Shown here: positions 10,433 to 11,664 of the stretch, piece after piece
How the letters are laid out: every line of letters begins with the position of its first letter
Position numbering within the stretch: position 1 is the first letter of the stretch
NCBI GenBank assembly: GCA_011364985.1
Contig: RDOC01000001.1
Location: 128,001 to 192,000, forward strand
Origin: Candidatus Thorarchaeota archaeon
GTDB lineage: Archaea > Asgardarchaeota > Thorarchaeia > Thorarchaeales > Thorarchaeaceae
Direction of reading: 5' to 3'
DNA: 64,000 nt
Program-made: the position numbers and the translations under genes
The notes under the pieces: model-generated
Database searches by the model: none
The model's input: only the letters and a program-made list of their open reading frames with translations
Told to the model about the DNA's origin: nothing

Positions 10433-11664
10433 TTGACGCCAACGATAAGTGAAAATGCAATTTCTATTGAAGGTCTAACTGGCGACGCCGCCATAGCACA
10501 TGCCCTGAAGCAATGCGACCTGGATGTCCTTGCAGCGTATCCTATTACGCCTCAGATACACTGACCCTCGTGGTCCTTGTAGAGGTAACTATAATCGTAG
10601 AAGACTTCCAGAAGTTTGCAGCAGATGGAGAAGTTCACACAGCAGTTATTCCAGTTGAGTCTGAACACAGTGCAATGAGTGCTTGTGTGGGAGCATCAGC
10701 CATTGGAGCCAGAGTTGCTACGGCCTCAGCATCAGCAGGACTCGCCCTGATGTGGGAAATTCTGTACTGCGCGGCTTCAATGCGAATGCCAATCGTCTTC
10801 ACTGTGGCAAACCGAGCACTTTCAGCCCCTATCAACATCCACAATGACCATAGTGATGGAATGGGTATGCGTGATAGCGGCTTTGTGCAGTTGTACTGTC
10901 AGTCCTCGCAGGAGGCCTATGACACCACTATTATGGCCTTTAAGTTGGCTGAGGACCACGACGTCCTGCTCCCAGTAATGGTGGGCATTGATGGATTCAT
11001 TCTCAGTCACAACGTTGAGAGAGTAGAGATGCTTCCAACAGAGATGGTCCACAAGTTCCTTGGAGTACGCGATCCTGTCCAACCCCTAGACCCGAAGAAT
11101 CCGATAACCATGGGTCCACTGGCTCTAACTGACTATTACTTCGAGTTCAAAGAGCAGCAAGACAGGGCAATGTGGCGAGTCCCTGAGGCCTACAAGAAGG
11201 TTGAAGAGGAGTTCAAGAAGATCACTGGGCGATCCTATGGAATGTTTGAAGATTACAAGACCAAGGATGCTGACATTATCATCCTCGCAATGAGCACCAT
11301 GGGAGGAACTGCAAAGGCTGTAGCCGATGTGCTTCGTGAGAAGGGCGAGAAGGTCGGAGTCATTCGACTGAAGATGTTCAGGCCATTCCCATCAGAAGAG
11401 ATTGCCGAGGCGGTTGGTGATGCCAAGGCAGTTATGATCTTCGAGAAGGCTATGTCTTTCGGTGCGGTCACAAGCCCTCTTGCCATGGAAGTGAGAAGCG
11501 CCCTCTATAATGTTGACAAGCGACCAATGGTCGTTGACTTTGTAGTCGGGCTCGGTGGAAGGGATGTGCCCCCGACAACCTTTGTTGAAGGATACGAGAA
11601 GACGAAGAGGTATTTGGAGAAAGGACAAGCTCCACTGTACGAAACCTTGGGGGTGCGAAAATAA
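10433..11664 (+). CDS. porA: Pyruvate/2-oxoacid:ferredoxin oxidoreductase alpha subunit, two exons (10433-10555 + 10588-11664; 399 aa if spliced)
   Basis: Exon 1 reads MTPTISENAISIEGLTGDAAIAHALKQCDLDVLAAYPITPQ; exon 2 reads TIIVEDFQKFAADGEV...VESEHSAMSAC...NRALSAPINIHNDHSD...GLGGRD; the ORF-track N-terminus (10513) is a wrong-frame artefact. Confidence 0.92.
10556..10587 (+). other. Candidate 32-nt bulge-helix-bulge (BHB) intron in porA mRNA
   Basis: Central helix CCUC(10550-53)/GAGG(10582-85); bulges AGA(10554-56) and UAA(10586-88); inner stems UACA/UGUA and GACC/GGUC; cleavage after the 2nd bulge nucleotide joins CAG|ACU in frame. Confidence 0.85.

Follow-up and report, generated by a model that had tools for sequence, protein, structure and literature searches.

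A candidate tRNA-type bulge-helix-bulge mini-intron within the porA coding sequence of a Thorarchaeota archaeon

The closest described system is cbf5 of Crenarchaeota, in which an ORF-less intron of 16-44 nt lies within the coding sequence (Watanabe et al. 2002; Yokobori et al. 2009, PMC2738675). [quoted passage not shown] A second archaeal mRNA case is HVO_1309 of Haloferax volcanii, with a 46-nt BHB intron in the 5' UTR that was demonstrated by circRNA-seq and in vitro cleavage (PMC7714728). BHB introns are also described in archaeal tRNAs and rRNAs (Marck and Grosjean 2003), and a 2026 preprint on Asgard archaea reports many non-canonical tRNA introns and does not treat mRNAs (bioRxiv 10.64898/2026.10.13.758758). 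In our full-text literature search, cbf5 was the only confirmed archaeal coding-sequence intron and HVO_1309 the only 5' UTR case, and none of the papers retrieved describes a BHB intron for porA or for an Asgard protein gene. The published literature searched is in agreement with the initial annotation of this DNA, which knew of no description of such an intron in porA or in Asgard mRNAs.

The porA locus analyzed here resembles cbf5 in several respects. Both introns are short, ORF-less and placed within a coding sequence, the relaxed BHB of each is cut (by prediction in porA) between residues 2 and 3 of the bulge, a heteromeric EndA is required in either case (predicted for porA), both cause mis-annotation by gene callers, and both show a patchy distribution implying gain and loss. 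The locus differs from cbf5 in gene and phylum, porA acting in central carbon metabolism and its host belonging to the Thorarchaeota (Asgard). Unlike that of cbf5, the porA intron occurs next to a duplicated exon 1 in an operon that has been split; furthermore, cbf5 splicing has been verified, whereas we infer porA splicing from the sequence. The kind of intron is known (a cbf5-type mRNA BHB intron), and the gene and the phylum are new. HVO_1309 is likewise an mRNA substrate of the tRNA splicing endonuclease, as is predicted for porA, but its intron lies in a UTR with no reading frame dependent on it, whereas that of porA lies in the coding sequence. With archaeal tRNA and rRNA introns, porA shares the motif, the size class of about 30 nt and the presumed enzymes, the difference being that its substrate is a protein-coding message in which the cuts are bound by the reading frame.

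In eukaryotes, HAC1/XBP1 messages are spliced without the spliceosome by the endonuclease IRE1 and a tRNA ligase or RtcB, in a regulated stress switch. This proposal for porA shares with it a short frame-shifting mRNA intron, a protein endonuclease and a tRNA ligase; HAC1/XBP1 differs in relying on IRE1 and twin stem-loops and in being regulated, whereas a BHB and EndA are predicted for porA. The unconventional splicing of HAC1/XBP1 is mentioned in PMC13149111.

The window is the whole stretch of 64,000 nt that was analyzed, from the genome referred to below as G000. Its porA gene is read on the forward strand in two frames. Frame a runs from TTG 10433 to 10555 (...DVLAAYPITPQ) and then continues as IH before a TGA at 10562-10564. 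Exon 1 (10433-10555), delimited by orthologue alignment, has 41 codons and ends with EGLTGDAAIAHALKQCDLDVLAAYPITPQ. TTG 10433 is a plausible start codon, and a putative Shine-Dalgarno-like GGAG (10422-10425, forward strand) can be read 7 nt before it. Exon 2 (10588-11664, forward strand) is in frame b, begins with TIIVEDFQKF and comprises 358 codons and the stop. Between the PorA codons ...YPITPQ and TIIVED... lies an insert of 32 nt (10556-10587) that shifts the frame; since A10556 and A10588 are identical, the insert could equally be shifted by one base, which leaves the junction unchanged. The frames, the 32-nt gap and the TGA described in the initial annotation were all found in the sequence.

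For exon 2 alone, NF040682 PorA_Arch was the best NCBIfam family, with 446 bits; the cut-off of 550 applies to the full-length protein and is not reached by a query that lacks exon 1. The following gene, porB (11664-12614, forward strand, 316 aa, NCBIfam PorB), overlaps the porA stop codon. PorB, PorC(gamma) and PorD were identified beside PorA, which gives a four-subunit gene set. We therefore name the porA product as the predicted alpha subunit of a pyruvate:ferredoxin oxidoreductase, with a predicted substrate specificity. The host had been taken for a probable Asgard archaeon, and the same-genus relatives are indeed MAGs labelled Candidatus Thorarchaeota or Promethearchaeota.

When 40 relatives were searched, the orthologues (29/29) read AAYPITPQTIIVED uninterrupted, and all 73 informative species-representative loci were likewise without a porA insert. 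Removing exactly 10556-10587 therefore restores the family sequence. In addition, the EndA cut rule applied in the initial annotation yields PQ|TI with no residue lost or gained, which matches the 29 and 73 intron-less loci alike.

The insert and its flanks can be folded as a BHB, in which every pair that had been listed was present (CCUC/GAGG, UACA/UGUA, GACC/GGUC, G10549-C10589 and AUUA/UAAU). The central helix H joins CCUC of exon 1 (10550-10553) to GAGG of the intron (10582-10585), both on the forward strand, with 4/4 Watson-Crick pairs as in an archaeal BHB intron. It is flanked by a 5' bulge AG|A (10554-10556), with a predicted cut after G10555, and a 3' bulge UA|A (10586-10588), with a predicted cut after A10587. 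Within the intron, the inner helix h' consists of 4 bp (UACA/UGUA) and, beyond a 2x2 loop, a further 4-bp stem (GACC/GGUC) closed by the loop CUCGU. The outer helix h is weak: its 5' strand AUUA..G (10544-10549) pairs with 10589 and 10592-10595, giving G10549-C10589 and then, past a 1x2 loop, four A-U pairs (AUUA/UAAU). The motif appears to be of the relaxed, HBh'-like kind that broad-specificity EndA reportedly accepts (PMC5829648). The minimum-free-energy fold gives the central helix, the AGA bulge and both intron stems, and the local fold energy is unremarkable (z = -0.84).

In the proposed splicing, exon CCUC (10550-10553) of the pre-mRNA would pair with intron GAGG (10582-10585), giving a 4-bp helix flanked by 3-nt bulges on opposite strands, with the intron hairpin on one side and the weak exon-exon helix on the other. 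A heteromeric EndA would cleave each bulge past its second base, between 10555 and 10556 and between 10587 and 10588, and RtcB would ligate the exons into CCU CAG|ACU AUA, read as YPITPQTIIVED. The expected RNA junction would be ACGCCTCAG|ACTATAATCG and the expected junction peptide AAYPITPQTIIVEDFQK, whereas translation of the unspliced message would end at TGA 10562. We consider it very probable that the porA mRNA carries a tRNA-type BHB mini-intron in its coding sequence that is spliced out. This was the core reading of the initial annotation, and it is supported by the register, the homologous inserts, the constraint on the gene, the sister introns and the presence of EndA and RtcB. By contrast, the accompanying idea of a regulatory switch gained no support.

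Regarding the machinery, two EndA-family (PF01974) genes were detected in G000, with 105.6 and 70.7 bits; these paralogues are located at G000:C11:364581-364835 and C15:156070-156327. One PF01139 gene encodes RtcB (G000:C17:79599-80909, 594 bits). [quoted passage not shown] Using Aragorn, introns were predicted in about half of the 34 tRNA genes of G000, some at non-canonical positions, with imprecise boundaries. Two metatranscriptome runs of the same study contained nothing from the porA stretch.

To place a number on the structure, random 32-mers drawn from G000 were put at the porA site and BHBs were scored only in the junction-restoring registers. The observed BHB quality in the restoring register was reached in 1/20,000 trials (5e-5), and a lenient criterion (four central and at least two inner pairs) in 0.24% of them. 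A structure-only scan of the genome for BHBs joining two ORFs was non-specific, with 3,688 lenient and 184 strict matches, so the weight of the argument lies in the register and not in the fold. A BLAST search of the insert against its own genome returned no second copy, and thus no sign of a repeated mobile sequence.

We found homologous porA inserts in two further loci. One, of 31 nt and at the same codon boundary, was the sole further match when 400 genomes of the phylum were scanned by pattern; it lies in G101, a genome of the same family and another genus than G000 whose locus is known from 60 nt. A pattern scan of metagenomes gave 59 stretches, only one of which was porA: the locus L316 (contig Ga0209986_10005251), also with a 31-nt insert. 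About one third of the intron positions differ between G000 and G101/L316, and the inserts are clearly homologous. CCUC/GAGG, both 3-nt bulges and the hairpin are kept in G101 and L316; the bulges change from AG|A to AA|A and from UA|A to AC|A at a constant length of 3 nt. Orthologous inserts that had lost the helix and bulges were named in the initial annotation as a ground for refuting it, and these two inserts retain both. The central and outer helices are invariant across the three porA introns. The inner helix UACA/UGUA becomes UGCA/UGCG or UGCG/UGCG, which amounts to one A-U to G-C compensatory pair and two wobble-preserving (G-U) changes. In the proposed structure, 96% of cells pair, versus 30-61% after a shift of the 3' partners by 1-3 columns. 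With three sequences from two lineages, the covariation of the porA intron is not significant, 178/500 shuffles reaching the score.

The initial annotation had also suggested scanning the genome for BHBs at other frame breaks, and two more were found. For this comparison, all ORFs of at least 100 aa of G003, a complete same-genus chromosome (CP070658.1), were compared with G000 by tblastn, and about 1,250 G000 ORFs had a good G003 match. In the genes shared by G000 and G003, inserts of at least 8 nt occur only in porA, ahcY and hutU, and all of them are BHBs in the restoring register. The reverse comparison, of G000 ORFs with the G003 genome, gave no convincing insert in G003. A fourth candidate, of 16 nt at C15:249238, turned out to be an artefact of ORFs that overlap or run antisense, and was discarded.

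The ahcY gene (S-adenosylhomocysteine hydrolase) has a 32-nt BHB intron at G000:C1:129-160 on the reverse strand, between GHPS and EVMD, with CCAG/CUGG as central helix, bulges UG|U and AG|A and a 3-bp outer helix. An ahcY insert of 31-32 nt is found at the same site in 12-13 of the 87 genomes of the order, across 9 genera and in two subtypes, the central helix of which is CCAG/CUGG or CUAG/CUAG. The third base of the Pro codon and its intron partner are C-G in 3/6 aligned sequences and U-A in the other 3/6; in all, four pairs of the ahcY intron show compensatory change, and 0/500 shuffles reach its covariation score. In hutU (urocanase), the 29-nt BHB intron of G000 (C11:449289-449317, reverse strand) lies between NYGQ and MTAGG; its central helix, ACGG/CCGC, contains one A.C mismatch, and its bulges are AC|A and AA|A. 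A hutU insert is present at the same site in 5/87 genomes from 3 genera, with a length of 30 nt in G014, G023, G056 and G057; its central helix is ACGG/CCGU, ACGG/CCGC or AUGG/CCAU and seems to covary, as read by eye from five sequences. The random-insert null rates were 1.5e-4 for ahcY and 2e-3 for hutU. Frame-breaking inserts that last across genera with compensatory change would be tolerable only if they are removed from the RNA. Splicing of mRNA by the tRNA machinery appears to belong to ordinary gene expression in Thorarchaeota, where gene callers mis-annotate the intron-bearing genes as truncated, frameshifted or pseudogenes. It also makes the gain, loss and mobility of introns in the archaeal ancestors of eukaryotes testable on defined loci. 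A search for contigs encoding the 383-aa mis-called porA ORF gave no match.

Other features were observed around these two genes. Several hutU introns are in frame, with a stop codon. In the locus L251 (G020:C1), an extra decayed 3' part of ahcY with one TGA lies at about 3800-4020, around 1 kb downstream of an intact intron-less gene; its homology starts about 10 nt before the position of the ahcY intron in other genomes, and a similar extra fragment is present in G015. In G027, a distant genome of the same phylum, the ahcY match (G027:C66:1923-3227) is split near residue 130 into two segments separated by about 27 nt, which may be an intron at a different position.

We then weighed the possibility that the insert is recent and disabling, porA being a young pseudogene with a coincidental BHB-like shape. 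About 100 orthologues without the insert, an operon already broken by an island of 15 kb and a genome that is 74% complete speak for it, and the rearranged region around the intron, with an exon-1 stub and the island, also fits a history of DNA-level accidents. An intact second por operon may exist, G000 being 74% complete; the only paralogues found have 25-27% identity. Nevertheless, the interrupted gene is strongly constrained. All 358 codons of exon 2 form an open frame in G000 as well as in L316, with porB next in both. At the 186 near-invariant columns (at least 97%) of 53 Thorarchaeota PorA, the G000 and L316 sequences show no deviation, compared with a median of 1 and a maximum of 6 for the other PorA sequences. 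The dN/dS of porA was 0.064 between G000 and L316, and 0.048 (dS 0.31) between L316 and its intron-less congener G018. The intron lineages have diverged by about one third, which indicates that the gene, although interrupted, has stayed intact over a long period. In addition, a pseudogene would have to acquire a BHB in the exact register by a chance of about 5e-5, and it leaves unexplained the homologous insert in another genus and in a metagenome contig, with structure kept and genes intact, as well as the finding that all three inserts of at least 8 nt in shared genes are BHBs, two of them conserved across genera. We therefore regard this explanation as improbable. A high N/S ratio of unique substitutions on the G000 branch (1.19) was set aside: the branch is long in all compared genes and no invariant column is changed.

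The porA intron lies within a rearranged operon, a context missed in the initial annotation. In G003, porG-porD-porA-porB is contiguous, as it is in G018. In G000, synteny with G003 delimits an island of about 15 kb between porD and porA, the right-hand part of which (1-10384 of the window) separates porG-porD and a stub from porA-porB. This stub is a decayed copy of porA exon 1 (G000:C11:123353-123442), located directly after porD and about 4.6 kb before the start of the window; its translation reads ...ITIERPTGEAAIAHALKQCEH, followed by a stop. L316 has the same layout, with a stub at 4586-4715 and an insert of 3.3 kb (4716-7900) that is unrelated to the G000 island. The stub of L316 looks like a native exon 1 and is complete, its end coinciding to the base with the 5' splice site. 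A 12-nt BRE/TATA-type motif, AAGATACTTAAA, putatively a promoter, is present at 10385-10396 (forward strand) of the window and is identical before the second exon 1 of L316 (7800-7811). In both fully readable loci, the order is therefore porG-porD, stub, island, motif, second exon 1, intron, exon 2 and porB. In Pfam searches, the G000 island proved to encode a response regulator, a GNAT acetyltransferase, wHTH regulators and four PAS/His-kinases. Among the island ORFs of G000 and L316, neither an integrase nor a transposase nor a homing endonuclease was detected.

For the origin of this layout, we considered a tandem duplication of exon 1 and the intron, a hairpin-targeted integration and an RNA-mediated event. 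A tentative and rather unlikely idea is that the mini-intron is the 3' end of a recurrent cassette (promoter, exon 1 copy and BHB intron) that landed exactly at the splice site, turned the native exon 1 into a stub and split the por operon. Possible routes for such a cassette are RNA-mediated events with EndA-cleaved exon halves, or an integrase using the intron hairpin; either route, if true, would connect exon shuffling and the rearrangement of genes with splicing of the tRNA type. More generally, BHB intron sites in Asgard genes could be hotspots of exon-precise duplication or integration. A long-range BHB between the stub exon 1 and the 3' splice site was also tried and rejected, with 3/4 central pairs and no adjacent inner helix in L316 and a decayed stub in G000.

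The same layout raises another explanation, in which the 32 nt are a DNA-level scar or recombination site of the operon-splitting element, such as an att-like imperfect palindrome, carried along with the duplicated exon 1, PorA being made otherwise or not at all. In its favour, both G000 and L316 combine the intron with a stub, an island and another copy of exon 1, the L316 stub ends exactly at the splice site, and the intron core is an imperfect inverted repeat. However, neither island holds an integrase or transposase, and the two share no homology. Moreover, a DNA-site role leaves the CCUC/GAGG exon-intron pairing and the 3-nt bulges unaccounted for, as well as the strong constraint on exon 2 and porB. 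As a replacement for splicing, this explanation appears very unlikely, slightly more so than a pseudogene; a DNA-site role and a splicing role are not mutually exclusive.

It is also conceivable that the 32 nt are skipped in translation, through a bypass in which the ribosome hops as on phage T4 gene 60 or through recoding of another type, given TGA 10562 shortly past the break, the hairpin that follows and the ATA at 10556 that is repeated at 10591. An ATA-to-ATA hop would drop the conserved Thr (PQ-IIVE, not PQTIIVE), bypass does not predict an exon-intron pairing with 3-nt bulges, and ahcY and hutU show the same geometry with different codons. To our knowledge, no such mechanism is known in archaea, and we give bypass hardly any credence compared with removal of the insert by BHB splicing.

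Finally, we analyzed the support for the insert at the DNA level, raw reads having been named in the initial annotation as a check on it. The runs found to contain the porA stretch are two DNA runs, with no RNA run among them; they are probably one data set, and probably from the source sample, and their contigs were built independently from the reads. A Logan contig spans 10501-11673 at a word depth of 18.5, with zero differences and no alternative form, and carries the 32 nt with flanks of 55 nt and of over 1,000 nt; the insert is thus borne out by an independent contig build. Although the genome is a MAG and the Logan graph breaks at 10501-10530, an assembly or sequencing artefact has next to no chance of explaining the insert, which is crossed by a variant-free contig at depth 18.5 and has homologues in two unrelated assemblies (G101 and L316). 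At this break, the Logan contigs overlap by 30 nt (a graph branch) with a similar depth on both sides, close to the point up to which the second exon 1 and the stub of G000 are homologous; there may be a strain variant in the sample at this point.

Elsewhere in the window, a 772-aa ORF on the reverse strand (14011-16329) looks by eye like a fusion of a NifS/IscS-type cysteine desulfurase with the selenophosphate synthetase SelD. On the same contig, Aragorn predicts a tRNA-SeC at G000:C11:352835-352925, which suggests the use of selenocysteine.
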